Source: a virus
Length of the DNA stretch: 64,000 bases
Direction: 5' to 3' (one strand)
Virus record (IMG/VR): IMGVR_UViG_3300008117_004020
Location: 1-64,000 of that record
Under the pieces are notes generated by a model. It was not told where the DNA came from. It made no database searches and saw only the letters and a list, made by a program, of their open reading frames with translations. This document shows positions 11,674 through 57,074 of the stretch, in pieces. The translations under genes were made by a program, and so were the position numbers. Position 1 is the first letter of the stretch; every line of letters starts with the position of its first letter.

Positions 11674-13880
11674 TATTTTATGTTTTTAAAGGCTGAACGA
11701 TGACTATTGTATTTGCTTCTTACAGTAGAAGAGTGACCCATATGTCTAAATGGGTTCAATTTTAATTTATGACTTTTTTCTGAATTTTCCAAATTATCCT
11801 TCTTAACTTCTACACGTTTAGCCAGTCCTCTGTTGGACTGCTGCACTTTAGCAAAAGCTATAAGAGCACAAAATGATACTATCCTATCCACGTTTAGTCC
11901 ATCCCTATATGCTTGCATTTCTTTAAGAAGCATTGGGTCAGGTATCCTCTCCACTCCATAAATAGTCTTCACTATTGTACCATCAGGTAGAGTTTCATGG
12001 TCTAATTCCTCTTTAAGAAATTCAATACCATATGATAGAATTGTGCCCTTGAATATTGTACCCACATTCTTCCATCCATACTCTTGGAATACATTCCTAT
12101 TAGCTCCTATGTCTTTGAGAAACAATATCATGTCTTTAGGAACCAGATACCTTTGTTTCTTCTTAGATATCATGTATTGGATGAACAGAGCTACGTTGTT
12201 CTCCACTATAGTCCAAGCATTATACCATTCTATAAGAAGCTCTAGTCTTTCATGTGTCTTGTTAATATCATCAAACCTACCGCACCAAGACGCCACTATC
12301 CTATCTCTCTCAATTGTGTTTTTAACCTTACCATCTCCTTCATCTTCAATCACTTCTACTGGATTCTTATATATGTAAATAGAACATAGAGAATCAGATG
12401 TAGTTGTCTTACCCTCACCTACAGGATCCACAGAGGCATAATACATCCCAAACGTAGGATCTTTATGTGGTCTTTCATATACACATATCACACCCTCTTT
12501 ATCTTCTGTCTTTTTAGAAATAGGGAAGTCCATGATGGGAAGCTTCCTGGATGAGGATGCTACAATCTTACCCTCTGCATTTCTAGACAGGTCCAAATAC
12601 TCAACTGAATAATCCTTATCTGAGATTCTTTGTAATTGTTTTGTAACTAAGTGGGAAGGGAACACACTCACTTTTCTAGAAGCAAATGCTTCTTCTATAT
12701 TGCGGGGGTGCTGAGATATTTCTAGTTGATATGCTTCTGGTGCTAAGTTCTTCTTTTGTTTAGTGAACTCCTCATCCAAAGCTTCTAATGCTTCTCCCAC
12801 TAGTGAATTACCATACCCATCTATGTATGGAGGCATAGACCACTGTTCTGGAATAAACAATCCTGTTTTTCCTAGGGTGCCTTCTGTATCTATAAGATTG
12901 GACTCCACCCCAAAAAATCCATTCTCTTCAGGATGTAAGATGTATTCTTTCAATGGTTCACACTGATCCAAGTCACCCACTGATCCTGCTGCAATAAACT
13001 GACCTGTGATGATGTGACCAGACTTAAGAGCTGGTTTCATGAATCCATAGGTGTCATTCATCTTAGGAGCAATACCAGCCTCCTCATGAAAGAAGTAGGT
13101 GACAGGACCACCCACACCATGTGTAGGATCTTTTTCAAAGGAGTAGAGATTTATAGTGGACTTTAGTCCCTTATATGTATCCCTACCATTTATCCTCACT
13201 TTAATCTGCTGTTGCCATGCTCCCACCTTGTCTGGTTCAGCTGGTCTATACCAAGCAGTGTGTTCATTAAGGAAGTTTTTATACTCATTCAAAAACTTCC
13301 ATGAACCTTTCTCATTTATATAGTCTTTTAGACTCGCTCCTATTTTTAACACTGCACCCTCTTCAAACCAATATTGGTTAATGAGTTTAGCCATGTGAAA
13401 ATAGGAGGAGGCTATCTGACGTTTTTTAAGGATAATGGCATGTTTATAATTAAGCTCAGCTAAATGTTCATATAGAGCCATGTGATACTGAGCATCTCTC
13501 ACTTTTGCAAAGTCAAATCTCTTTTCCTCCTTATCGTATATAGGCAGGAAATTAAGCCACATATAATAATCACGACTAATATACCAAGTGTTACCATTAG
13601 AGTGTACAATAATCCCCTTACGACATTTATTTTTCTGATCATCCCAGTAGGTAATGAAATCTTTTGTTTTAACTGGTGCAGAACAGTAATACTTTTGTCT
13701 TTGAAACTTTCTAGCTTCTGCATTAAATATGAGACTGCTTTCATCAAAATTGTATTGACCAGGTTCTTTAAATATAGAAGACACGAAGGCTTTAAACTCT
13801 TCTCTGGAAGAAAAGGTTGTTATACTCCATTCCCCATCTTTGTATGTAGGGATATCAGTATAATTATTTATTTCTTGCAT
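11673..13880 (-). CDS. terL: Terminase large subunit
   Basis: Walker A-like LKKRQIASS, Walker B FFHEEAG, nuclease motif YYASVDPV, C-terminal DRIVS. Confidence 0.92.
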   Translation of the reverse strand: MQEINNYTDIPTYKDGEWSITTFSSREEFKAFVSSIFKEPGQYNFDESSLIFNAEARKFQRQKYYCSAPVKTKDFITYWDDQKNKCRKGIIVHSNGNTWYISRDYYMWLNFLPIYDKEEKRFDFAKVRDAQYHMALYEHLAELNYKHAIILKKRQIASSYFHMAKLINQYWFEEGAVLKIGASLKDYINEKGSWKFLNEYKNFLNEHTAWYRPAEPDKVGAWQQQIKVRINGRDTYKGLKSTINLYSFEKDPTHGVGGPVTYFFHEEAGIAPKMNDTYGFMKPALKSGHIITGQFIAAGSVGDLDQCEPLKEYILHPEENGFFGVESNLIDTEGTLGKTGLFIPEQWSMPPYIDGYGNSLVGEALEALDEEFTKQKKNLAPEAYQLEISQHPRNIEEAFASRKVSVFPSHLVTKQLQRISDKDYSVEYLDLSRNAEGKIVASSSRKLPIMDFPISKKTEDKEGVICVYERPHKDPTFGMYYASVDPVGEGKTTTSDSLCSIYIYKNPVEVIEDEGDGKVKNTIERDRIVASWCGRFDDINKTHERLELLIEWYNAWTIVENNVALFIQYMISKKKQRYLVPKDMILFLKDIGANRNVFQEYGWKNVGTIFKGTILSYGIEFLKEELDHETLPDGTIVKTIYGVERIPDPMLLKEMQAYRDGLNVDRIVSFCALIAFAKVQQSNRGLAKRVEVKKDNLENSEKSHKLKLNPFRHMGHSSTVRSKYNSHRSAFKNIK

Positions 13881-26787: not shown

Positions 26788-27256
26788 GGGGGTGACAGGT
26801 ATAGACCTGCATCTAAGAGGTATCATCACATGCAAGAGGTAGCCAATACTCAAAGCAATTGGTTAAAATTAAAGGACAACACTACTGTTGAACTTTCTGA
26901 GTATACCATTGACTCTCTGCTTGCAGAGTTGTCTGGTGCTGAGCTTGAATTAGCTTAGGTCAGAGGAGGAGCTATCCTTTGCAACAGAAAATAGCAAATG
27001 TAAAGACATAGGACCATTCCTGTGACACTGACCATCCAAGACTATATGATGTAAAAAGATAGCAAGTAATAGTTTCCTGGAGTTATACTAATAAACCAGG
27101 TGGTGGAGCTGGTGGCTTCTAAACCACTGGTTAGTTCCCTTACGGTGCAAAAATGTCTAGTTTTTGACACAGAAAACTTGACAAATTAGTACTAAGCATG
27201 TAAGAATGGTGGTATTGCTTGATGTAGACACAGGGGTTCGAATCCCCTCACCTCCT
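26788..27256 (+). ncRNA. ssrA: tmRNA
   Basis: 5' GGGGGTG pairs with 3' CACCTCC (G3:U70); T-arm AGGGG-TTCGAAT-CCCCT; CATG/CATG helix partners; tag frame 26875-26958 DNTTVELSEYTIDSLLAELSGAELELA* after an A-rich resume context. Confidence 0.88.
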
Positions 27257-27297
27257 CAGACTTGTGTAGTTTTAAAGCAAAGGTCTCAGAGGTACAC

Positions 27298-38263: not shown

Positions 38264-38974
38264 ATGACAGATACAAATATAAGCATTATTACAGACACAA
38301 AAGAAAAAATCATTGCGAAGTTGACACCATCAGGATGGGCTGACAAGCTTAGAATGTTTCTTAAGGGAGAAGAAATGAATATACTATTAGAGAAGCTTTT
38401 AACAGAGTCTCAGGAAGGTAGACATTTTACTCCTACATTAAAAGATGTATTTGCAGCATTTGAAAAGTGTCCATTTGACAAAACTAAGGTGGTACTAATG
38501 GGACAAGATCCCTATCCTTATTTAGGAGTGGCTGATGGACTAGCATTCTCATGCAGTAAGACAGGCAAAATACAGCCTAGTTTGCGCTATATATTCAAAG
38601 CGCTTGAGAATCAGACTGGTGTAGAGCAAACCAACCCAGACTTGACTAGATGGGCAGAACAAGGCGTATTAATGCTTAATACAGCTCTTACATGTCAAAT
38701 AGATAAAGTGGGGTCTCATTATGATATATGGAAAGATTTTCTATTTATGGTGATTGATGCCTTAAATTATCATAGTGAGGGAACAATATATGTTCTAATG
38801 GGTAAGCAAGCTCATTCTTTTGGGTCTTATATTACACCAACAAGTCCTATTATAAAAATATCCCATCCAGCTTCAGCAGCATATGCTAAAGCTAATGAAT
38901 GGGATTGTGATGATTGTTTTAATAAGGTGAATCAAACATTGATGATTCAAAGAAGACAGCCTATAAACTGGTAG
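38264..38974 (+). CDS. ung: Uracil-DNA glycosylase (family 1)
   Basis: GQDPY, ADGLAFS, PSL, W..QGVL.LN..LT, SHPAS. Confidence 0.95.
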   Translation: MTDTNISIITDTKEKIIAKLTPSGWADKLRMFLKGEEMNILLEKLLTESQEGRHFTPTLKDVFAAFEKCPFDKTKVVLMGQDPYPYLGVADGLAFSCSKTGKIQPSLRYIFKALENQTGVEQTNPDLTRWAEQGVLMLNTALTCQIDKVGSHYDIWKDFLFMVIDALNYHSEGTIYVLMGKQAHSFGSYITPTSPIIKISHPASAAYAKANEWDCDDCFNKVNQTLMIQRRQPINW

Positions 38975-38979
38975 TAAAA

Positions 38980-39008
38980 AGGCCCCTTAAGTGGGGCCTA
39001 TATTTTTT
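38980..39008. terminator. Bidirectional terminator
   Basis: AAAA-GGCCCC-TTAAGT-GGGGCC...TTTTTT between convergent blocks. Confidence 0.75.
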
Positions 39009-39130
39009 CTAGTTAAAGATATTTCAACTTCTGTACTACTTAACTGGCTTAACTGAGTTAACTAGGATTATTCTTAGTTAAGCTAGTTAACCTAGTTAAG
39101 CAGTTTAGGTATGGATTATACGTTAACTAG
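39009..39130. repeat. Symmetric TTAACT iteron-like array
   Basis: TTAACT at 39040, 39049, 39058; TAGTTAA at 39075, 39084, 39093; outer pair CTAGTTAA 39009 / TTAACTAG 39123 with the same centre. Confidence 0.8.
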
Positions 39131-39132
39131 AC

Positions 39133-39255
39133 TTATCTTCCTTGTCCTCTATATTTAGAGACTTTCTTACATTTTGGTCCACTAGATTTAGAAGCTTTAC
39201 CTCCTTTGCGCTTACCAAATGTAACCTTATTAGCTCCAGAAATTGATTTTGCCAT
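39133..39255 (-). CDS. Small basic protein ending KYRGQGR (not in ORF track)
   Basis: MAKSISGANKVTFGKRKGGKASKSSGPKCKKVSKYRGQGR, 40 aa. Confidence 0.7.
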   Translation of the reverse strand: MAKSISGANKVTFGKRKGGKASKSSGPKCKKVSKYRGQGR

Positions 39256-39267
39256 TGGTTATATAAT

Positions 39268-39873
39268 TTAATTTGTACAATCGTTACAATCTATCTTTTG
39301 AATAGCTGGGTATGTGGGATCTCCTTGAGGATAAGGAAAAAATGAAAATAACTGCCAACAACCATTAAATCCTGGTGTTGGGTAGTCAGGTATTAAAAAG
39401 ACATTATTTGATGATATACCTGTAAGAGATACAGTGGATGATATTGAAAATGTTGTACTTACAAAAGGGTCTATTGTTTGACCATTACAACCTAAAAATA
39501 TAGCATCAGCTCCATAATAATATATAGAAGGAGGTGCTTCTGTAGTGGTTGTAGTTGTTGTCTCACAATATTTTTGTTGACAGCAGATATCCACTGGTAT
39601 TTCTTTCCAACATCCTATTTCAGGAGGACAATAAGGGGTGATAAGCATACTTCCTGGAACTACATGACCATCATTAGCAAACCTAATATAAGCATGTTTG
39701 TCCCCATTAGCTACACAATCGCAGTCAGGTTCACAACATATGCTCTCTGTTACTTCCACCCATACACCACCATCTTTAGGGTGATTTCTAGCTATAATAA
39801 GACTACCAGAGACTAGTTTACCTTGCTTTGTGTATTTAACAAAGGCGTGTTGATATTTACGTTCTTTCTCCAT
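39268..39873 (-). CDS. Putative virion decoration protein, two AFVxY..VPGS..W.EV..D.CC repeats
   Basis: Repeats visible in the translation; poly-Thr linker. Confidence 0.65.
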   Translation of the reverse strand: MEKERKYQHAFVKYTKQGKLVSGSLIIARNHPKDGGVWVEVTESICCEPDCDCVANGDKHAYIRFANDGHVVPGSMLITPYCPPEIGCWKEIPVDICCQQKYCETTTTTTTEAPPSIYYYGADAIFLGCNGQTIDPFVSTTFSISSTVSLTGISSNNVFLIPDYPTPGFNGCWQLFSFFPYPQGDPTYPAIQKIDCNDCTN

Positions 39874-39879
39874 TAACTA

Positions 39880-40509
39880 TTACGGGGTAGTAGTTGTAGT
39901 TGTTGTAGTTACATTAACATCATAACTCCAACCTTTTCCAAAAAGAACTGTAAGAGCAGTTAAACCAGCTGGACCAGGAACTGCATTAGTTCCTCCTGTA
40001 AGATCTACATATCCATTACTAATTGCATTATCAGCTAATGCTACAAGAATATTGTCCACTGCAGTTTGTGTCAAACCACAATCATATAAAATTATTGAAT
40101 CGCCATCACCTAAAGGTTGTGAACTTGATATAATCACTTCTGTTAATCCTGCATTACCATTAAGATCAAAACCTTTAAGCGCAGGTAGTCCTGATAAATC
40201 TACAGATCCTGATATATTAGATTGATCAACATCAAGCCAAATCAAATTATCAAGTCCTGAAAGATTAGGAAATCCTCCTGAAAAATCACTATCATCAAGA
40301 CGAAGTTGTTGAAGAGCTGTGCATCCTGATAAATTAACAGAAGTTAAGCTGTTAGTATTAGTGCCTGGAATATCACAGTCACTAATATCAACATTTATTA
40401 AATTAGGAAGATTTGATAAATTAACAGATTGAAAACCATTATAATCTATATTTATTGTTTGCAGATTTACAAGATTTTGCAAACCTGTTATTGATACTAT
40501 TTGTGCCAT
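39880..40509 (-). CDS. Leucine-rich repeat protein
   Basis: LxxLxxLxxLxL repeats, LTQTAVDNILVAL cap, poly-Thr tail. Confidence 0.8.
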   Translation of the reverse strand: MAQIVSITGLQNLVNLQTINIDYNGFQSVNLSNLPNLINVDISDCDIPGTNTNSLTSVNLSGCTALQQLRLDDSDFSGGFPNLSGLDNLIWLDVDQSNISGSVDLSGLPALKGFDLNGNAGLTEVIISSSQPLGDGDSIILYDCGLTQTAVDNILVALADNAISNGYVDLTGGTNAVPGPAGLTALTVLFGKGWSYDVNVTTTTTTTTP

Positions 40510-40521
40510 ATTTTTTTAAAT

Positions 40522-41049
40522 TTAGTCAGGTGAAGAAGTAAAATTAATTACACTTTCAATGTTATCAAAACATACTTGTACAGTGTATTGAGTGTTAGAT
40601 TCTGGATATGTGTGGGTCTCTTCATAGAATCCACCAAGTCCTGCATCAACATGTGTAGTACCATCACCCCAATTAACAGTAAAGTTGATAGGTGTTGTGG
40701 TAACAAAGCTGAATACAAAGAATGTACCTTCAGTTGTATCTACAACAAACTCAATACAATTACTTTGACAACATAAATCTACACTCACTTGACGCCATAT
40801 ACCACCATCTTTTGGATAGGAACTTCCTATAATAAGAGATCCTGGTACTATTTTACCAGCTTTAGTGTAGCGAATAAATCCTTTAAGTCTTAAATTACTA
40901 GGATAAGAGGTGTCTTCACAGCACAAGTCTGTGTTCACTTCTTTCCATACAGCAGGACCACTTGGATATGTTCCCTGTGTTACTATCATACTACCAGGAA
41001 CTATTTTTCCTGATTTAGTATATTTTACAAATGCTCTTTGTTTTGACAT
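40522..41049 (-). CDS. Putative decoration protein, two repeats plus PKD-like domain
   Basis: Same repeat twice; V.WGDG and HTY motifs. Confidence 0.7.
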   Translation of the reverse strand: MSKQRAFVKYTKSGKIVPGSMIVTQGTYPSGPAVWKEVNTDLCCEDTSYPSNLRLKGFIRYTKAGKIVPGSLIIGSSYPKDGGIWRQVSVDLCCQSNCIEFVVDTTEGTFFVFSFVTTTPINFTVNWGDGTTHVDAGLGGFYEETHTYPESNTQYTVQVCFDNIESVINFTSSPD

Positions 41050-41067
41050 ATTATTAAGTTTTAAAGA

Positions 41068-41496
41068 TTAACCACCAAATCCAAATGGACCAATACTACC
41101 TCCTAATCCTGAACACTCAGGATTGTTTAATAGTGTATTGGCAATATCGTTAGACACAGCTAAAACAATATTACCATCACCATCTACACTAAATACACCC
41201 ATATAATCAAGCTGTTCATTTAAACCAGCAGCTAATTCTTCAGGTGTATTAAATTCTCCAAGTACAGCTCCAGCCACAAGTGTTGGTCCCATACCACAGA
41301 AAAACTGTACATATGGGGTGTTAATAGGATAGGTGATTTCTTCAAATGTAATTGTCACACCGCTATTACAACATAAGTCTGCTGGAACTTCCTTCCATGT
41401 AGATGGTCCTTGTGGGTATGAACCCCCAGTGAGGATCAAGCTACCAGGTACAATCTTGCCATTTTTACTGTACCTTACAAATGCTCTTTTTTTCAT
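41068..41496 (-). CDS. Putative decoration protein, one repeat
   Basis: KRAFVRYSKNGKIVPGSLIL..YP.G...WKEV..DLCC. Confidence 0.65.
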   Translation of the reverse strand: MKKRAFVRYSKNGKIVPGSLILTGGSYPQGPSTWKEVPADLCCNSGVTITFEEITYPINTPYVQFFCGMGPTLVAGAVLGEFNTPEELAAGLNEQLDYMGVFSVDGDGNIVLAVSNDIANTLLNNPECSGLGGSIGPFGFGG

Positions 41497-41501
41497 TATT
41501 G

Positions 41502-41576
41502 TTATCTTTTAGGTTTAGATGATGTAGACTTAGGTTTACCACAGCCACAACCATAAATGTTAGTGTTCTTTATCAT
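41502..41576 (-). CDS. Tiny GCGCGK peptide (not in ORF track)
   Basis: MIKNTNIYGCGCGKPKSTSSKPKR fills the gap exactly. Confidence 0.5.
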   Translation of the reverse strand: MIKNTNIYGCGCGKPKSTSSKPKR

Positions 41577-41577
41577 A

Positions 41578-42102
41578 TTAAGCTTCATTTTGAGAAGGTG
41601 ATCCTTCTATGTTAAGAAATATTTTTCTAATGTTTAATGGAGGAGTATGATAGGCAGGTCTTCTTGCATCTAAAAGTCTAGACTTAGCTATCTTAGCTAC
41701 ATTTACAGCATTACCCTGATTACCACCAAGAACAAAATAATTTTTATTGTCTTCTCCTACATAGAATCCTACATGTCCACCACCACCTGGTCTCGTAAAC
41801 ACAAGAATATCCCCAAGCATAGGACTAGGAGACTTAACACCAAAATTTACCCAATTGCGAGCACCTAATAACCATTCAACAGGTTGTCTATCTGCTCTTT
41901 TAATACACACACCTACAAAAAGTCCACACCATGGAGTTTCATCGTTTCTGTATGTAATACCAAGTTCTCTAGCCCATCCCATAATAATAGGATTGTGCTT
42001 AGGACCCACTGTTTCTTCTACACCATAAAGCTCTAAAGCTTTAACAAGATGCCTGGGAGCCCCTTCAAGAGCTAGCCATGCATATTTTTTAGGAAGTTTC
42101 AT
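41578..42102 (-). CDS. Endolysin, TIGR02594-like NlpC/P60-CHAP peptidase
   Basis: DETPWCGLFV, AR.W, GDI.VF.R..GGHVGFY, LGGNQ. Confidence 0.9.
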   Translation of the reverse strand: MKLPKKYAWLALEGAPRHLVKALELYGVEETVGPKHNPIIMGWARELGITYRNDETPWCGLFVGVCIKRADRQPVEWLLGARNWVNFGVKSPSPMLGDILVFTRPGGGGHVGFYVGEDNKNYFVLGGNQGNAVNVAKIAKSRLLDARRPAYHTPPLNIRKIFLNIEGSPSQNEA

Positions 42103-42108
42103 TGGTTA

Positions 42109-42702
42109 TTATTTAAGTTTCCAATAGGTCTGTAATTGAGCGCCTAATTTATTCTCATTATCCACTGTTCCTGATAGAATGTAGATGCGTTGTTTCTTGT
42201 CTTTGTATAACAAGCCTGTGTTAAAGGTTCTGATTACACCACCTTGAAATCCTTGAATACCACCACCAAAATAGAATTCTCTTTGTGGAGCAGCATATTT
42301 AACCACGCTGTCATGGATGATGGGATATGTAAGATTGTAGTTATAAGTTCTACCTGTTAAGGCATTACTCATCACCTCATCTTTCACATAAACATATCCT
42401 ACACTATCTATTTTAAGACTGTCCTCATAAACATTCTTAGTCAAGTAGTTAGTTACTAAAGAGTTATACTGAGCTAGTAACTTATTATAATTTGTGTCAG
42501 GAAGATATTCCTTTAGAATCACACTGTCAACAGAACCTTCTCTTATAATCAACTTTGGATTAGAATAGATGGTGCTGTCTTTTTTCACCCATATAGTATC
42601 AGAATACACTATTGTGGTGGTAGTGTCTAGTGGTTTCTTACACATTTGTAAAAGTATGACCACCAGCAGTGCCACAATAATCATATCCAAATACTTTTTC
42701 AT
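42109..42702 (-). CDS. Membrane-anchored lysis-module protein (spanin-like)
   Basis: N-terminal TM, DT/DS-rich stalk, C-terminal beta strands; lies between holin and endolysin. Confidence 0.5.
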   Translation of the reverse strand: MKKYLDMIIVALLVVILLQMCKKPLDTTTTIVYSDTIWVKKDSTIYSNPKLIIREGSVDSVILKEYLPDTNYNKLLAQYNSLVTNYLTKNVYEDSLKIDSVGYVYVKDEVMSNALTGRTYNYNLTYPIIHDSVVKYAAPQREFYFGGGIQGFQGGVIRTFNTGLLYKDKKQRIYILSGTVDNENKLGAQLQTYWKLK

Positions 42703-42781
42703 ATCTCAGGATTTAACAGGTAAAATAGAATGTTCCAGGTGAGTTTTTATAATTTTTCTCACCTGGACTTCTATTATTTCA

Positions 42782-43042
42782 TTAAGCTGTAACTGTTGTA
42801 TCAGCTTTAAAGCGACCAATGATAGATACAATTGTACCCAAAGCAGCCAACAATTGACCAACAATAACAGGCATAGAACCTTGAGAAGCTTTAATAGCTT
42901 CAGCATAAGCCTTCAATTGCTCAAAATCTGCATTAGCAGGAAGAGTGGGTTCTTCCACTCCAATCATTGACATTACAAATCCTAGAGCTGCAATTGCAAT
43001 ACCCCAGATTGTCTTAGATTGATACCACTTTTTTGTTTCCAT
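42782..43042 (-). CDS. Holin-like protein
   Basis: KKWYQSKTIW, two TM segments, IIGRFKA. Confidence 0.7.
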   Translation of the reverse strand: METKKWYQSKTIWGIAIAALGFVMSMIGVEEPTLPANADFEQLKAYAEAIKASQGSMPVIVGQLLAALGTIVSIIGRFKADTTVTA

Positions 43043-43062
43043 TTTTATTTATATTTGGTGAA

Positions 43063-43593
43063 TTATATTATTTTATAGATATATGAAAAAGAGTAAAACC
43101 CACTTGTTGCAGTAGGATTATTATTTTCTACAGTTACTTTCCCAGATGAACCGCCTATTGCATAAATTTTACAAGAGGTATCATAAACAGCTACACCAGA
43201 TGCATCTGATTGTTCAACAAAATTACTAGCTATAGGTGTTTCCATATCAAATGCCCAAGCACCTGGGTCAATAATAACACTAACATCTAATACACCCCAT
43301 ACATACACCGTGTTTCCAATACGTATATAATTGACAAGTGATGGAAATAGTATTGAACAGTTGGATTGTGTCTGAAGAACTGGAGTAAAAGTACTTTGTA
43401 CAAAAGTTGGTGCTGGGTTAGCAACAGCTAGAGGACTACCCACTGTACCATTTCCTGTCAATGTAGCATCATGAGCCACTGCAGTGAGAGCAGTTCCACC
43501 AGATTCTAGAGCTGTCACTCTACCAGAGAGTCTTTTAATGAATTTAGTAAGCCAATCTAGCCTACCAAATATATCTGTAGATTTAGGATTCAT
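43063..43593 (-). CDS. Virion fibre-like protein
   Basis: TLTGNGT..SPL motif; YIRIGNTVYV receptor-binding-type tip. Confidence 0.55.
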   Translation of the reverse strand: MNPKSTDIFGRLDWLTKFIKRLSGRVTALESGGTALTAVAHDATLTGNGTVGSPLAVANPAPTFVQSTFTPVLQTQSNCSILFPSLVNYIRIGNTVYVWGVLDVSVIIDPGAWAFDMETPIASNFVEQSDASGVAVYDTSCKIYAIGGSSGKVTVENNNPTATSGFYSFSYIYKII

Positions 43594-43906
43594 AAGATTC
43601 TGATATTATGTTTTTATTCACATCATAGTATTCCTCAGGCTTAAAATAAAGCCTCATAAACCATGGGTAGTGAGTGTTAGCTATTGGTTTTTTACCAAAG
43701 ACTTCCTGCTCTAATGATCTTGTAGTTCTCTCAAGATTCTCAATTTTGGTCTTATCAATGTTGCTTTGAGCCAATAATTGCTTAACATCTGAGCGCATTT
43801 CTGTAATATCACGCCAAATCATTAAAGCTAAGAACGACACTAAAGATGGGAATACATACACCTTTAGTTTGTTGATGAAAGAATTTTCTTTAATTTCTGC
43901 AGCCAT
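43583..43906 (-). CDS. TM plus coiled-coil protein (holin-like)
   Basis: One TM segment followed by a coiled coil. Confidence 0.55.
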   Translation of the reverse strand: MAAEIKENSFINKLKVYVFPSLVSFLALMIWRDITEMRSDVKQLLAQSNIDKTKIENLERTTRSLEQEVFGKKPIANTHYPWFMRLYFKPEEYYDVNKNIISESYES

Positions 43907-43953
43907 CTTTCAAAACAAATTTATATATTTACAAATAAAAATAATCACATTAT

Positions 43954-44077
43954 CAGACCATCCTACTGGGGTAAAACCCTGATTTACAATGAGTTATAGT
44001 TGTAGCACTGAGGATGTGCAAGTTAATCAGAACTGTTAACTTAGGGTTTTTTGTAGTCCCCAGCAGAAAATGGTCTG
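43954..44077. ncRNA. Nested multi-branch structure in divergent intergenic region
   Basis: CAGACCAT/ATGGTCTG, CTGGGG/CCCCAG and AAAACCCT/AGGGTTTT enclosing three small hairpins. Confidence 0.6.
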
Positions 44078-44155: not shown

Positions 44156-44623
44156 ATGATCAAAAAAGAAAACCTGCCTAGTGAAGACATTATAAAAATA
44201 CTTTCTAAGGAGTTTATTGAGCGAATTAAGAAGGAAACAGGCAAAGATTACAATATTCAAATCATCAATCACACTCTGATTGCCTCTAGAGTTGAGCAGA
44301 TTATTCCAAGAAAAATAGTGTCTCTTGATGATTTAGAGAAGATTATTCTACGCAATATGCCAGTTGAAATACCTAGTGGTAAGTTTAAGTCTAAGAGTAG
44401 AATTCGCGAGCTTGTGGATGCTAGGACCATATTCTGCTACATGGCCTGTAGGATATTTGGGTTCACTGTTACAAACGTAGGCAGATATCTAAAGAAGCAC
44501 CATACTAGCGTTATGTATCTAGTTAGAAAGTGCGAGATTCTTATGGAAGTTGATCCTGAATACTTGGGATTGTTTCAGTCAGTAAAAGACAAACTTAAAG
44601 AAGCATATGAAGAAGTTCTTTAA
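44156..44623 (+). CDS. Stand-alone DnaA domain IV (HTH) protein
   Basis: SKSRIRELVDARTIFCY.....TVTNVGRYL.KHHTSVMY. Confidence 0.8.
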   Translation: MIKKENLPSEDIIKILSKEFIERIKKETGKDYNIQIINHTLIASRVEQIIPRKIVSLDDLEKIILRNMPVEIPSGKFKSKSRIRELVDARTIFCYMACRIFGFTVTNVGRYLKKHHTSVMYLVRKCEILMEVDPEYLGLFQSVKDKLKEAYEEVL

Positions 44624-45176
44624 TATGATTGTTAAGCTAGGTCTGTCTCCTAATGAAGCTTATGTGCTATTATGTTTGCACAATAAAGAGAAACCTCAGC
44701 AGGTTAATATAGACGAGTGTCTAAAATTCCTTTATAAAAAAGGGTTAATCACTACAGATTGTCATATAACTAGTAAGGGACTAAGTGTAGGTGACAAGCT
44801 AGAAAAGATAAAAAGATCATCTAAAAAACAATTAACAGACGAGGATAAAGTAAAAATCAAAGAGTATAGAGAACTGTTTCCAAAAGGTAAACTACCCTCT
44901 GGTTATCCCGCCAGAGTTACAGTGAAGGAACTAGAGAAGAAGTTTGAACATTTCTTCTCTAACTATGATTATGATTGGGACATAATCATAAAAGCCACCA
45001 AAAAGTATATACAAGAACATGAGCCTACATATGACTATATGAAGACCTCAAGTTATTTTATATTCAAGACTGGTGTAGACAAGACATCTGTTTCAGCACT
45101 GTCATCATATTGTGATATGATATTGGAATCAGATGAGGATGATAATCAAAATGTTACATTTTCAAGAGCAGTTTAA
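44607..45176 (+). CDS. wHTH replication-associated protein
   Basis: N-terminal wHTH (L..KGLI...IT.KG); YRELFP, YMKTSSYFI; upstream of dnaB. Confidence 0.5.
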   Translation: MKKFFNMIVKLGLSPNEAYVLLCLHNKEKPQQVNIDECLKFLYKKGLITTDCHITSKGLSVGDKLEKIKRSSKKQLTDEDKVKIKEYRELFPKGKLPSGYPARVTVKELEKKFEHFFSNYDYDWDIIIKATKKYIQEHEPTYDYMKTSSYFIFKTGVDKTSVSALSSYCDMILESDEDDNQNVTFSRAV

Positions 45177-49589: not shown

Positions 49590-49975
49590 TGGCAAAGAAA
49601 AAATCCAGAGTGGTAAAGACTAGAAATGCTGGCACTATGAGTGAATCAGCATTCTGGTCCTTTATTAGATCAGCCCTAAGGCAAAAGAGTAGATGGTGGA
49701 AGCCTATAGCATTGCGTAAACAAATGTCTAAAAGGAAATATGTTGGACCCAAACAGGGTAAAAATAGACAGCAATGGGAATATCAATGTGCTAGTTGTTT
49801 AGACTGGTTCCCTGATAAAAACATTAATGTTGACCATATTGTTCCAGCTGGTACACTCAGATGTGCTAATGATCTACCTGGATTTGTAGAAAGACTTTTT
49901 TGCGAAATTGATAATCTTCAAGTGCTTTGTTCAACTTGCCATGATAAAAAAACTAAGTCAGAAAAAAAGCGATAA
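49589..49975 (+). CDS. HNH endonuclease
   Basis: YQCASC, VDHIVP, NLQVLC..CH..KT. Confidence 0.85.
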   Translation: MAKKKSRVVKTRNAGTMSESAFWSFIRSALRQKSRWWKPIALRKQMSKRKYVGPKQGKNRQQWEYQCASCLDWFPDKNINVDHIVPAGTLRCANDLPGFVERLFCEIDNLQVLCSTCHDKKTKSEKKR

Positions 49976-50501
49976 CGAGTTGATTCAAGCATATCTCAAT
50001 GGAGATGCTAAAGCTTTTGATACACTTTATAAGAGATATCTAGGATTTCTCATCACTATAGCTAAAGCATACGCATGGGACAAATGTCTCGTAAAAGACT
50101 ATGTACAAGATACATGGTTAAAAGCTGTTAGTAGCTTTGATAAATTTGATGGTAAAAACTTCAAATCTTGGATAAGCAGAATAGCAATTAACATATGTAT
50201 TGATAGATATAGACAAAAAATGCGTAGACCTACAGATTATGAGAACACCTTTCCTACTATCTCATATACAAATAACATGTCATATATCAAGGATAAGGAA
50301 GAAAAGCTTGCTCTTGTATTAGAGAAGATTAAACTTCTAAATCCTACACAAAGAGATGTTATATTGTTAAGAATGAAAGATGTTGATTATAAAGTGATTA
50401 TGCAGAAATTAGATAAGCCCTTAGGTACATGCTTGTCAGCCTTTAGGGTGGGGGTTAACAGAATTAAAAAACTAATAGAACAAGATGAAAACGAAGAATG
50501 A
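49941..50501 (+). CDS. ECF-type sigma-70 factor
   Basis: GD..AF..LY.RY, D.VQDT..K, FKSW..IA.N..ID..R, L...QR.VI.L; start re-called. Confidence 0.85.
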   Translation: MIKKLSQKKSDNELIQAYLNGDAKAFDTLYKRYLGFLITIAKAYAWDKCLVKDYVQDTWLKAVSSFDKFDGKNFKSWISRIAINICIDRYRQKMRRPTDYENTFPTISYTNNMSYIKDKEEKLALVLEKIKLLNPTQRDVILLRMKDVDYKVIMQKLDKPLGTCLSAFRVGVNRIKKLIEQDENEE

Positions 50502-50694: not shown

Positions 50695-50866
50695 CACAAT
50701 AATGGGTAGGAAGCTTATAGAACATGATATACCAGAAATAGCTAAACAACTTAAGAGAATAGCTGATATATTAGAAAAGCAAAAGATAAAAGAGTTGATG
50801 GAGCTATATCCTAATGATCAGGATTTAGGTAAAAAGATCAGAGAACATTACACTATTATGAAATGA
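50678..50866 (+). CDS. Hypothetical protein
   Basis: 62 aa; YPNDQDLG motif. Confidence 0.6.
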   Translation: MTELHNTIMGRKLIEHDIPEIAKQLKRIADILEKQKIKELMELYPNDQDLGKKIREHYTIMK

Positions 50867-51714
50867 AGATAATCAATCAAAAGACCAAAACTCTTACAAC
50901 TAGAGATAATGGGAGAAGCTCAGATGCAGTTTCTCCCAATTTTATCTATGGTTGTTTAGGGGGTTGTATGAAGTCCTATTGCTATGTAGGAAGATATAAC
51001 CATGACAAAGTGTATATAAACCAGAATATAGAAAACATTCTAAATTCTATTTCAAAGTGGGCAGCTGATAGACCATGGCCTAAAGTTGCTAATCAAACAG
51101 ATGACACTTATTATACAATAGATATAGGATGTAGCACAGATGTACCCTTATTAGGTAAGCACTATGACTGGCAAAAAGTGTTTGATTTCTTTAATGATTC
51201 TCCAAAACTAAAGAGCACTTTTGCCACTAAGTATCCTACCAGATTTAAAGCAGATGAGTATAAGTTGTCACCAGGTAAGCATAGGATTAGAGTGAGTCTG
51301 ATGCCTCAGAAGTATTCTGATATACTAGAACCTGGTACAGATCTTATATCTGATCGCATACAATCTATACCAAATCTTCAAAAGTATATGGAAGTACATA
51401 TAAACTTCAGTCCTATTATATACACAGAGGGTTGGTTAGAAGAGTATGAAAGTTTATTTCAGGAACTAAAAACTGCTGGTGTTGATGTAAAATGTGAGTG
51501 TATTTTCTTAACTTACAATGTTATTCAGCATGAGCGTAATGAGTCTGAAATAGACAATATGCTATGGCAGCCAGATATACAAGAGGCTAAAGATTCTCAA
51601 TATGCTCCAGATAACATAAGGTATAAATATCAACTAAAAGCGAAGATGGTTAAAGATTTTACAGAGCTTTATAGTCATTACTTTAATCCTTTAAATATTA
51701 GGTATATATTTTAA
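50863..51714 (+). CDS. Spore photoproduct lyase-like radical SAM protein
   Basis: R.NGRSSD...P....GC...C....CYV.R, DIGC.TD, FATK, RIRVSLMP, VH.NFSP.I, RYK. Confidence 0.8.
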   Translation: MKIINQKTKTLTTRDNGRSSDAVSPNFIYGCLGGCMKSYCYVGRYNHDKVYINQNIENILNSISKWAADRPWPKVANQTDDTYYTIDIGCSTDVPLLGKHYDWQKVFDFFNDSPKLKSTFATKYPTRFKADEYKLSPGKHRIRVSLMPQKYSDILEPGTDLISDRIQSIPNLQKYMEVHINFSPIIYTEGWLEEYESLFQELKTAGVDVKCECIFLTYNVIQHERNESEIDNMLWQPDIQEAKDSQYAPDNIRYKYQLKAKMVKDFTELYSHYFNPLNIRYIF

Positions 51715-56198: not shown

Positions 56199-57074
56199 AT
56201 GACAGGTTTAAACGCAATGGAGAGGATGTTTTCAGCACCTCTCCCAGAAAAAACAGACAGCTATACACCAATAGCTCATGAAACTATAGACAAGATAACA
56301 AGAACAGCCCTCCAAGAGCAGGGCTTTGTGTTATCTAAAACATTTTATAGAAGTTCTACAGATGGTAGATTAGGACAAGCTGAGTATCACATTAACTATG
56401 GAGATGATCCAGAAATGGGACTGATGATTGCTTGGCAGAATAGTTACAACAAGCTTATATCATTTAAATACGCTATTGGAGCACACGTAATGGTGTGTTC
56501 TAATGGTGCTGTTTCAGGTGATATTGGAGCATATAAAAGAAAGCATACAGGTACAGCTGATGAAGAGGCTGCATCACAAATCAAGTATTATTTACAGAAT
56601 GCTAAGCAAATCTTTTTGAATTTAGTTAGAGACAGGGAGCATCTAAAGAAGATTGACTTATCTCCTGAAAGAATGGCTGAGATTATAGGTAGAATGTTTA
56701 TTCATAAAGAGATTATTACATCTACGCAAATCAATATCATGAAGCGTGAAATGGAAACTCCATCATTTGATTATGGTGTACCAGTACATAACGCATGGTC
56801 ATTGTATAATTTTGCAACACATGCTTTTAAAGAAGATAGTCCTAGAAACTGGATTTCTAGACATATAGATTTACATAGCTTCTTTGGAGAAGAGTTTGGA
56901 TTGGAAAGGTCTGAGGAATCACCTGAGCCTGTACAACCCACTTTGTTTCCTGAAGAAGCAACCCCTGAAGAAACCTCTCAACCACTTGAAGAAGTAATGG
57001 AAGAAGTCCCAGCTTTTTCATCCAATGAGGAGAGAGACTCTGACGAATTAATTGATTTGTTAGAAGATTTTTAA
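56199..57074 (+). CDS. DUF932-like protein
   Basis: NSY.K, VCSNG, RKHTG, AWSLYN..TH..K; acidic tail. Confidence 0.75.
   Translation: MTGLNAMERMFSAPLPEKTDSYTPIAHETIDKITRTALQEQGFVLSKTFYRSSTDGRLGQAEYHINYGDDPEMGLMIAWQNSYNKLISFKYAIGAHVMVCSNGAVSGDIGAYKRKHTGTADEEAASQIKYYLQNAKQIFLNLVRDREHLKKIDLSPERMAEIIGRMFIHKEIITSTQINIMKREMETPSFDYGVPVHNAWSLYNFATHAFKEDSPRNWISRHIDLHSFFGEEFGLERSEESPEPVQPTLFPEEATPEETSQPLEEVMEEVPAFSSNEERDSDELIDLLEDF

Follow-up and report, generated by a model that had tools for sequence, protein, structure and literature searches.

The window analyzed here, that is, the whole 64,000-nucleotide stretch of DNA, corresponds to the initial 64 kb of a virus record consisting of a single 118,147-bp contig, for which phage-family matches were obtained for the portal, the large terminase, and the major head protein. 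None of the terminase relatives in the phage collection reaches 60% identity; by name, they comprise Flavobacterium, Bacteroides, and Cellulophaga phages, as well as uncultured and crAss-type genera; judging from these sequences, the TerL relatives point only to phages of Bacteroidota. The locus considered below is a convergent junction of two gene blocks. The plus-strand block ends with genes for an SNF2-type helicase, a 130-aa protein, and a uracil-DNA-glycosylase (UDG)-like protein, and the minus-strand block, which spans positions 39133 to 43906, ends with a gene for a very basic 40-aa protein with no family match. An array of TTAACT hexamers is located within the 3′ untranslated stretch of the latter gene, ahead of a terminator-like hairpin. 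The replication module starts at 44156, 5 kb from the array, and encodes a DnaA-domain-IV-like protein, a 189-aa protein, a DnaB-like helicase, Sak4, a primase, and a polymerase. Proteins with a sigma-70 region 2 (49908-50501), of the spore-photoproduct-lyase-like type (50863-51714), and of the DUF932 family (56199-57074) are also encoded in the replication block, and the DUF932 protein weakly resembles a DUF3871 protein of a bacterial island (in genome G002) considered below. The features of the junction are as follows:

38264..38974, plus strand: uracil-DNA-glycosylase-like gene, the last of the plus-strand block (PF03167, E 1.4e-9; phrog_12143, E 3.2e-47)
38980..38999, no strand assigned: bidirectional terminator-like hairpin, kept in the closest relative found (L001)
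39000..39131, no strand assigned: cassette of ~132 bp present here and missing in relatives
39008..39016, minus strand: outer left iteron (9-mer; the 8-mer CTAGTTAA is at 39009-39016); the minus strand reads TTAACTAGA, inverted with respect to the neighboring triple
39017..39039, no strand assigned: left spacer, 23 bp, 70% A+T, forming no palindrome with the right spacer
39040..39066, plus strand: three direct iterons in 9-bp phase, TTAACTGGC / TTAACTGAG / TTAACTAGG
39067..39072, no strand assigned: central spacer ATTATT, 6 bp, on the axis 39069.5
39073..39099, minus strand: three inverted iterons in 9-bp phase, reading CTTAGTTAA / GCTAGTTAA / CCTAGTTAA on the plus strand
39100..39122, no strand assigned: right spacer, 23 bp, 61% A+T, with weak likeness to the right spacer of the island array L262
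39123..39131, plus strand: outer right iteron TTAACTAGA (the 8-mer TTAACTAG is at 39123-39130)
39133..39255, minus strand: gene for the very basic 40-aa protein (MAKSISGANKVTFGKRKGGK...GPKCKKVSKYRGQGR), the last of the minus-strand block

The array consists of eight perfect TTAACT hexamers, namely, three direct and three inverted copies in 9-bp phase and an inverted outer pair, with the inner and outer sets sharing a common axis at 39069.5. The unit consensus is TTAACTRRN, both outer units read TTAACTAGA when taken as 9-mers, and the spacers (70% and 61% A+T) compare with 64.6% A+T for the window as a whole. The mirrored 3+3 layout in 9-bp phase, the outer pair centered on the same axis with non-palindromic DNA in between, and the position between a terminator and the end of the opposing operon (the hairpin at 38980-38999 and the stop codon of the gene at 39133-39255, respectively) had all been recorded in a first-pass annotation of the window and are borne out by the sequence. 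A further TTAACTAG listed there at positions 38-45 also exists, yet it is at chance level: TTAACTRG has eight matches in the window versus 7.25 expected, and six of the eight are inside the array. The clustering itself is of a different order. Nine of the 58 TTAACT/AGTTAA hexamers of the window fall within the 122 bp of the array, with a Poisson probability of at least nine hexamers of 1.4e-15 per 122-bp span and ~7e-13 across the window, and the largest hexamer cluster among 200 mononucleotide shuffles of the window contained five; these statistics exclude chance as the source of the array. When the 118-kb genome was scanned for clusters of at least six hexamers in 130 bp, two clusters located in long reading frames were recovered besides this array, which is the sole non-coding one. 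The other two, eight copies of GTTGTA, all direct, at 113118-113246 of the genome and CTAGTA/GTACTA in mixed orientation at 115035-115144, are each contained in a long minus-strand reading frame and are therefore probably coding repeats.

An inverted repeat in the 3′ untranslated region that closes the minus-strand operon could also act as an RNA or DNA hairpin, that is, as a stabilizer, a processing site, or a terminator helper. Indeed, the minus-strand RNA is predicted to form one long hairpin before the terminator (-52.6 kcal/mol, z -5.8; 0 of 200 shuffles as good), and the single-stranded DNA fold has a z of -4.3, although good folding is expected of any inverted repeat. In the mirrored unit pairs, the hexamers agree in three of three cases, whereas the variable positions agree in three of nine, which is near chance; the two 23-bp stretches between outer and inner units lack mutual complementarity and remain unpaired; and the island homologs described below retain the hexamers and their phase but not the pairing. 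Because the symmetry is limited to the hexamers, protein sites fit better than a selected hairpin, and we regard the latter as very improbable. An Rfam gathering scan of the window returned nothing at the array. Elsewhere in the window, an Rfam tmRNA match was obtained at 26788-27259 on the plus strand (48.2 bits versus a gathering threshold of 47, E 5.5e-16, full model length); ARAGORN reported no tmRNA and no tRNA in the window.

Comparison with related phages identified the array as an indel. L001, the closest relative found (its UDG is 76% identical), shows DNA-level conservation of both the terminator and the end of the 40-aa gene; positions 39000-39131 are missing, and the end of the 40-aa gene directly follows the terminator. 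A low-depth contig of a more distant relative (run X3) has position 38999 joined to 39133 with four other letters in between. No target duplication is evident at the indel borders in the comparison with L001. At least 353 relatives were retrieved in a metagenome scan with the 40-aa protein, and the best 80 of the 353 were kept; these are 64-88% identical, with varied downstream contexts, and in all 80 junctions, the 250-bp stretch that follows the gene contains at most two hexamers. Similarly, the TTAACT array is absent from G687, a 117-kb relative rated 100% complete, the whole genome of which contains no cluster of at least six hexamers in 130 bp and a single TTAACTN3TTAACT doublet, within coding sequence. 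Neither the surrounding 5 kb nor a shorter 311-bp stretch around the array had a DNA match in the phage collection, and both the exact 3+3 pattern and a spacer-based pattern had 0 matches in IMG/VR. Non-conservation, one of the observations listed in the first-pass annotation as refuting its reading, thus holds for the array as a core phage function, given its absence from L001, from the 80 junctions, and from the complete relative. Near-identical array-bearing contigs were found in four runs from four studies, with the array unchanged; as these are near-identical strains, the invariance says little about selection. The runs found to contain the phage (X1-X8) include no RNA run. A single insertion in this lineage is the simplest history.

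These comparisons bear on the possibility that the array is the phage's own origin or regulatory platform, bound, for example, by the DnaA-domain-IV-like protein (44156-44623) or the 189-aa protein (44607-45176), the two binders proposed in the first-pass annotation. The former matches the DnaA C-terminal helix-turn-helix (PF08299, E 5.8e-10), DnaA boxes are 9-mers too, the replication module begins close by, and no other non-coding hexamer array exists in the genome. However, both proteins are kept in G687 (30% and 41% identity, respectively), where they directly follow the UDG gene, even though that genome has neither the array nor any comparable cluster, and hhalign comparison of either candidate with the DNA-binding tail of the island protein described below gave a probability below 1%. 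Nor are the TTAACTRRN units close to the DnaA-box consensus. Together with the indel status of the array in the closest relative, these observations make an origin of the phage's own quite unlikely, and the two candidate binders are not supported. Upstream of 44156, an AGTTAA-N9-TTAACT pair is present at 44021-44041. It was set aside as an operator of the replication genes and provides weak evidence in this respect, being contained in a larger structure, a long-range inverted repeat at 43947-44075 in the divergent region ahead of these genes.

A search for the 2+2 mirrored pattern in one genome per species yielded 30 genome loci, in addition to seven viral loci, and most of these proved to be perfect palindromic hairpins. 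Only two of the 37 loci, L236 and L247, both from Chitinophagaceae, have an AAA_25 gene within 2.5 kb; in these, the spacers are non-palindromic and the arrays are situated directly 3′ of the AAA_25 genes, which are 39% identical to each other. A search of 301 Chitinophagaceae genomes with the AAA_25 protein (hereafter, Rep) matched six genomes, and TTAACT arrays begin at the AAA_25 stop codon in L262 (genome G300; AAA_25 gene at 1417-2496) and L263 (G042). In this small sample of rep-linked arrays, a TTAACT array right after the AAA_25 stop codon is found in four genomes (L236, L247/L259, L262, and L263), the AAA_25 proteins of which are 37-40% identical to one another.

The island arrays share with the window array the 9-bp phase and the two facing sets. 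The layout is 3+3 in the window and in L262, 3+3 with one degenerate unit in L263, 3+3 with degenerate innermost units in L259, and 2-3+3 in L236; whereas all eight hexamers are perfect in the phage, degenerate units occur in the rep-linked island copies. L262 displays the complete arrangement, with an outer CTAGTTAA, a 23-bp spacer, three direct units, three inverted units, a 24-bp spacer, and an outer TTAACT. Measured start to start, the outer inverted site is 29 bp from the first inner hexamer on both sides in the window, and 29 and 30 bp from it in L262; L263 has such a site at 30 bp on the left side only, and none was seen in the L259 or L236 arrays. Start to start, the innermost hexamers are 18 bp apart in the window, L259, and L238, and 27-28 bp apart in L262 and L263. 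The idea that central-spacer length is tied to orphan status was dropped, because the degenerate units place all arrays in one 9-bp register.

The similarity extends beyond the hexamers. The left spacer is identical to the L262 spacer at 17 of 23 positions, a value reached by 0 of 100,000 shuffles. In a blastn comparison of 19 kb of the G300 island with the whole phage genome, the array was recovered at 77% identity over 106 bp (E 2e-12), and for all five island loci compared with the phage, the array was the top match and the sole one with an E-value below 0.1. At the level of sequence, these results indicate that the relationship of the phage array to the island arrays is one of homology rather than convergence, and the phage array is, in our view with high confidence, an orphan copy of an island-type origin cassette. 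A true half-site pattern was found only in G300 and G042 among the 401 genomes sampled, and a spacer-based pattern, applied to 401 genomes of the order, recovered G300 only, plus two one-mismatch chance matches; the extra half-site matches in G121 and G250 were likewise attributed to chance. Four Bacteroidota genomes checked contain two to six TTAACTN3TTAACT doublets each. In G001-G003, these are found in the array only, with the exception of one stray doublet in G003, and G004 has four scattered doublets outside the array.

The bacterial arrays are parts of small islands. The G300 island contains, in order, genes for an integrase, an HTH_17 (AlpA-like) protein, a KilAC-domain protein, and AAA_25, followed by the array, AAA_24, and RadC, whereas the gene sets of G042 and G003 are still smaller and include NUMOD4-HNH genes. 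Given that the islands encode tyrosine integrases with arm-binding domains, and that the phage array is an indel bounded by inverted 8-mers, one might suspect an integrase attachment site, a MITE/REP-like element, or a plasmid-type centromere. Yet, the array is present in a single copy in the phage, the few doublets per bacterial genome are, in G001-G003, confined to the array but for at most one, and no target duplication accompanies the indel, all at odds with a MITE. No partition gene was identified among the 69 window proteins scanned against PHROGs and/or Pfam, and the G300 array is intact and internal, ~3 kb from the integrase gene, unlike attachment-site arms, which are split by integration. 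Explanations of this kind appear to us barely credible. An additional case is that of L300 (G002:C46; the same locus as L238), where a 4+3 TTAACT array with the 18-bp inner distance of the window array is located at ~12411-12472. No recognizable AAA_25 gene was found on the rest of the contig examined, and this island shares with the G300 island an AAA_24 protein (58% identity) and a 116-aa protein (45%); the L300 array may thus be a second orphan array.

The predicted structure of the island AAA_25 protein (mean pLDDT 83.8) has a RecA-type core, which is most similar in fold to RepA, the hexameric helicase of RSF1010 (1nlf and 1g8y; E 1.2e-10 and 4.7e-10; TM-score by target 0.68-0.73). In the model, the C-terminal region consists of three helices and a β-hairpin in a winged-helix pattern, so that the protein is predicted to join a C-terminal winged helix to a helicase core of the RepA/DnaB type. 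RSF1010 RepA is not known to carry a tail for DNA recognition and depends on a separate initiator for iteron binding, unlike the island proteins, which, according to the model, possess their own winged-helix tail. More distant homologs are directly followed by different repeats: GTAACA in L264 (G198), as a 3+3 mirror without a spacer; TTAGACT in L260 and L261; 11 copies of TGGACA in L268; TGTCAA in L267; 10 copies of GTGCGA in L271; CGGACG in L274; and nine copies of ACGCAC in L276. Several other AAA_25 homologs have no repeat array behind the gene, and the gene of one homolog from IMG/VR (L269:3947-4972) contains an in-frame stop at ~4220 and is followed by a GIY-YIG-like gene, with no array. 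As the homologs carry differing repeats, the repeat changes with the protein, which points to the C-terminal tail of AAA_25 itself as the probable repeat binder. The gene-adjacent arrays of the distant homologs further suggest a broad, undescribed class of origins; a limited literature search found no report linking AAA_25 proteins with iterons. With respect to the first-pass annotation, the proposal of a cooperative protein-binding platform, and specifically the option of a replication origin, gains support from the same type of array behind an island gene for a helicase-initiator, whereas the other options put forward there, a terminus, a centromere-like site, and a recombination site, found none.

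The partner is missing from the phage. Neither Rep nor a homolog of its tail was detected in six frames of the 118-kb phage genome by tblastn and profile search (hmmsearch), and no island Rep homolog was found in 100 related phage loci. In the window, the array is preceded not by a rep gene but by the UDG-like gene and the terminator. Any function of the array hence depends on a host-resident island that supplies the cognate gene. The island genes also have no significant relative in the phage (the sole tblastn match has an E-value of 0.001), which lends no support to the islands being satellites of this type of phage.

The arrangement of Rep and its array corresponds to that of SaPI/PICI-type origins. 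According to a study of these elements (PMC9371898), SaPI Reps are self-loading helicases in which a C-terminal winged helix recognizes iterons, and the origins, situated right behind rep, comprise 6-12 iterons divided equally between the two sides of an A+T-rich center, with at least two per side and in opposite orientation. For SaPI5, a recent cryo-EM report (bioRxiv 10.64898/2026.10.17.759575) describes three 7-mers separated by AA, that is, in 9-bp phase, bound by three neighboring domains, and a fourth domain which swings to an inverted iteron across 15 A+T-rich bp, with 17 bp on the other side; the DNA between the inverted iterons is proposed as the early melting point. The island arrays resemble those of SaPI and other PICI in being placed immediately downstream of rep, and the island protein resembles their Reps in having a C-terminal winged helix on a ring helicase. 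The window array likewise comprises two facing sets with three phased iterons per side, and shares with SaPI5 the 9-bp phase and the single inverted iteron across an A+T-rich stretch on each side. Differences exist as well. SaPI Reps are SF3 or MCM-like, in contrast to the RecA-type, RepA/DnaB-like core predicted for the island protein; SaPI origins are ~300 bp with a long A+T-rich center, compared with 122 bp and a 6-bp center in the window; and SaPI/PICI origins have the cognate Rep upstream, whereas the window array stands alone in the phage. The helicase families differ, and the likeness to SaPI would be one of mechanism and not of descent.

Based on this analogy, one half of the array, that is, an inverted outer iteron, ~23 bp of A+T-rich DNA, and three direct iterons 9 bp apart, could be a landing pad for one Rep hexamer. 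The phased sites would be occupied by three neighboring winged helices, with a fourth extending to the inverted site, and the facing halves would permit two hexamers to be loaded head to head. The phage lineage appears to have gained the bare 122-132-bp cassette without the gene, and hence the cassette would be active only in cells with a resident island from which the matching Rep is available. Given this protein, it could serve as an extra phage origin or as a sink titrating the island initiator. We infer both the binding of Rep to the phage array and a role for the phage, and consider it probable, if only modestly so, that the array responds to Rep and can act as a platform in cells where a resident island provides the protein.

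Several known systems are comparable in part. In satellite P4, both ori and crr are bound by the alpha primase-helicase. As in P4, the phage would contain a repeat array away from the initiator gene, with direct and inverted units, which needs an initiator supplied elsewhere; in P4, however, the second array, ori, and the initiator gene belong to one replicon, whereas here they are distributed between different kinds of elements, and the repeat and the protein family differ. The iteron clusters P1 incA and F incC lie outside the firing origin and can sequester the initiator. By analogy, they offer a model for the array as a decoy, although they control the copy number of the very replicon from which the initiator is produced, whereas here two competing elements would be involved. 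Conflict between a phage and a satellite around an iteron origin is exemplified by PLE RepA/ori and ICP1 in Vibrio cholerae, as reported in PMC7145576; the situation envisaged here is similar in this respect but differs from that system in protein family and host.

Whether the cassette does anything for the phage is a separate issue. It could be a neutral relic, gained by illegitimate recombination with a replicating island, with no phage role. Its absence from all relatives examined implies that it is dispensable for the phage group, the phage encodes no cognate protein, and the gene-free spot beside the terminator is one where an insertion would be harmless; the 6-bp center and the restriction to one near-clonal carrier lineage likewise count against function. 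On the other hand, the insert has been pared down to precisely the functional unit bounded by the two outer sites, with no traces of rep or other island DNA, and all eight hexamers are intact, as opposed to the degenerate units of the rep-linked island copies, both of which count for function. The recurrence of the same form in contigs of four runs from four studies also speaks against a relic, albeit these are near-identical strains. On the whole, we find a neutral relic unlikely. Going further than the Rep-responsive platform, one may ask whether the phage retains the origin of a parasite or competitor so as to block replication of the island or to gain additional rounds of its own replication, in Chitinophagaceae cells that carry an island with a TTAACT-type Rep. 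Hundreds of phage copies of the eight-site platform would then titrate, or recruit, a self-loading helicase. This is a possibility that we put forward tentatively and consider doubtful.

The findings are of interest at several levels. A RepA/DnaB-like ring helicase with a predicted winged-helix tail and a compact array constitute a candidate initiator-origin pair. The geometry of three phased and one inverted iteron per half matches that in the SaPI cryo-EM work on unrelated helicases, and would represent convergent evolution of self-loading. An origin cassette that apparently left its gene behind on passing from bacterial islands to a lytic-type phage would be raw material for origin piracy or decoys. 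The sole DNA that this uncultured freshwater, putatively crAss-like phage has in common with any genome searched belongs to a Chitinophagaceae island element, which provides a clue to the host. If the phage does retain the origin for use against, or with the aid of, an island, this would be the first virus found to carry the replication origin of a subviral element, as well as the first hint of an interaction of crAss-like phages with satellite-like islands. To our knowledge, no phage has been reported to carry a copy of a satellite's origin. A limited literature search retrieved no such report either, and only passing mentions of crAss-like phages in connection with satellites.

TTAACT repeats were also encountered in other settings. 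A 2+2 mirrored array is located at ~2501-2552 of L248, in the interval that separates a thioesterase gene from the start of a thiolase gene in a Bacteroidota genome. As this is the promoter region of the thiolase operon, a hexamer array is not exclusive to rep genes, which, like the L300 array, counts against a Rep-dependent role, and the L248 array may be an operator of an unrelated regulator. The triple TTAACTN3 pattern was found in at least 121 loci, and nearly all of the matches listed are coding tandem repeats; three loci flagged as mirrored among these matches were rejected as an unrelated sequence family. Finally, in seven IMG/VR loci (L038, L048, L064, L071, L086, L095, and L025), which form a separate family of viral contigs, three TTAACTT units in 9-bp phase adjoin a GGGAGGGCAGTC hairpin and a fourth unit.
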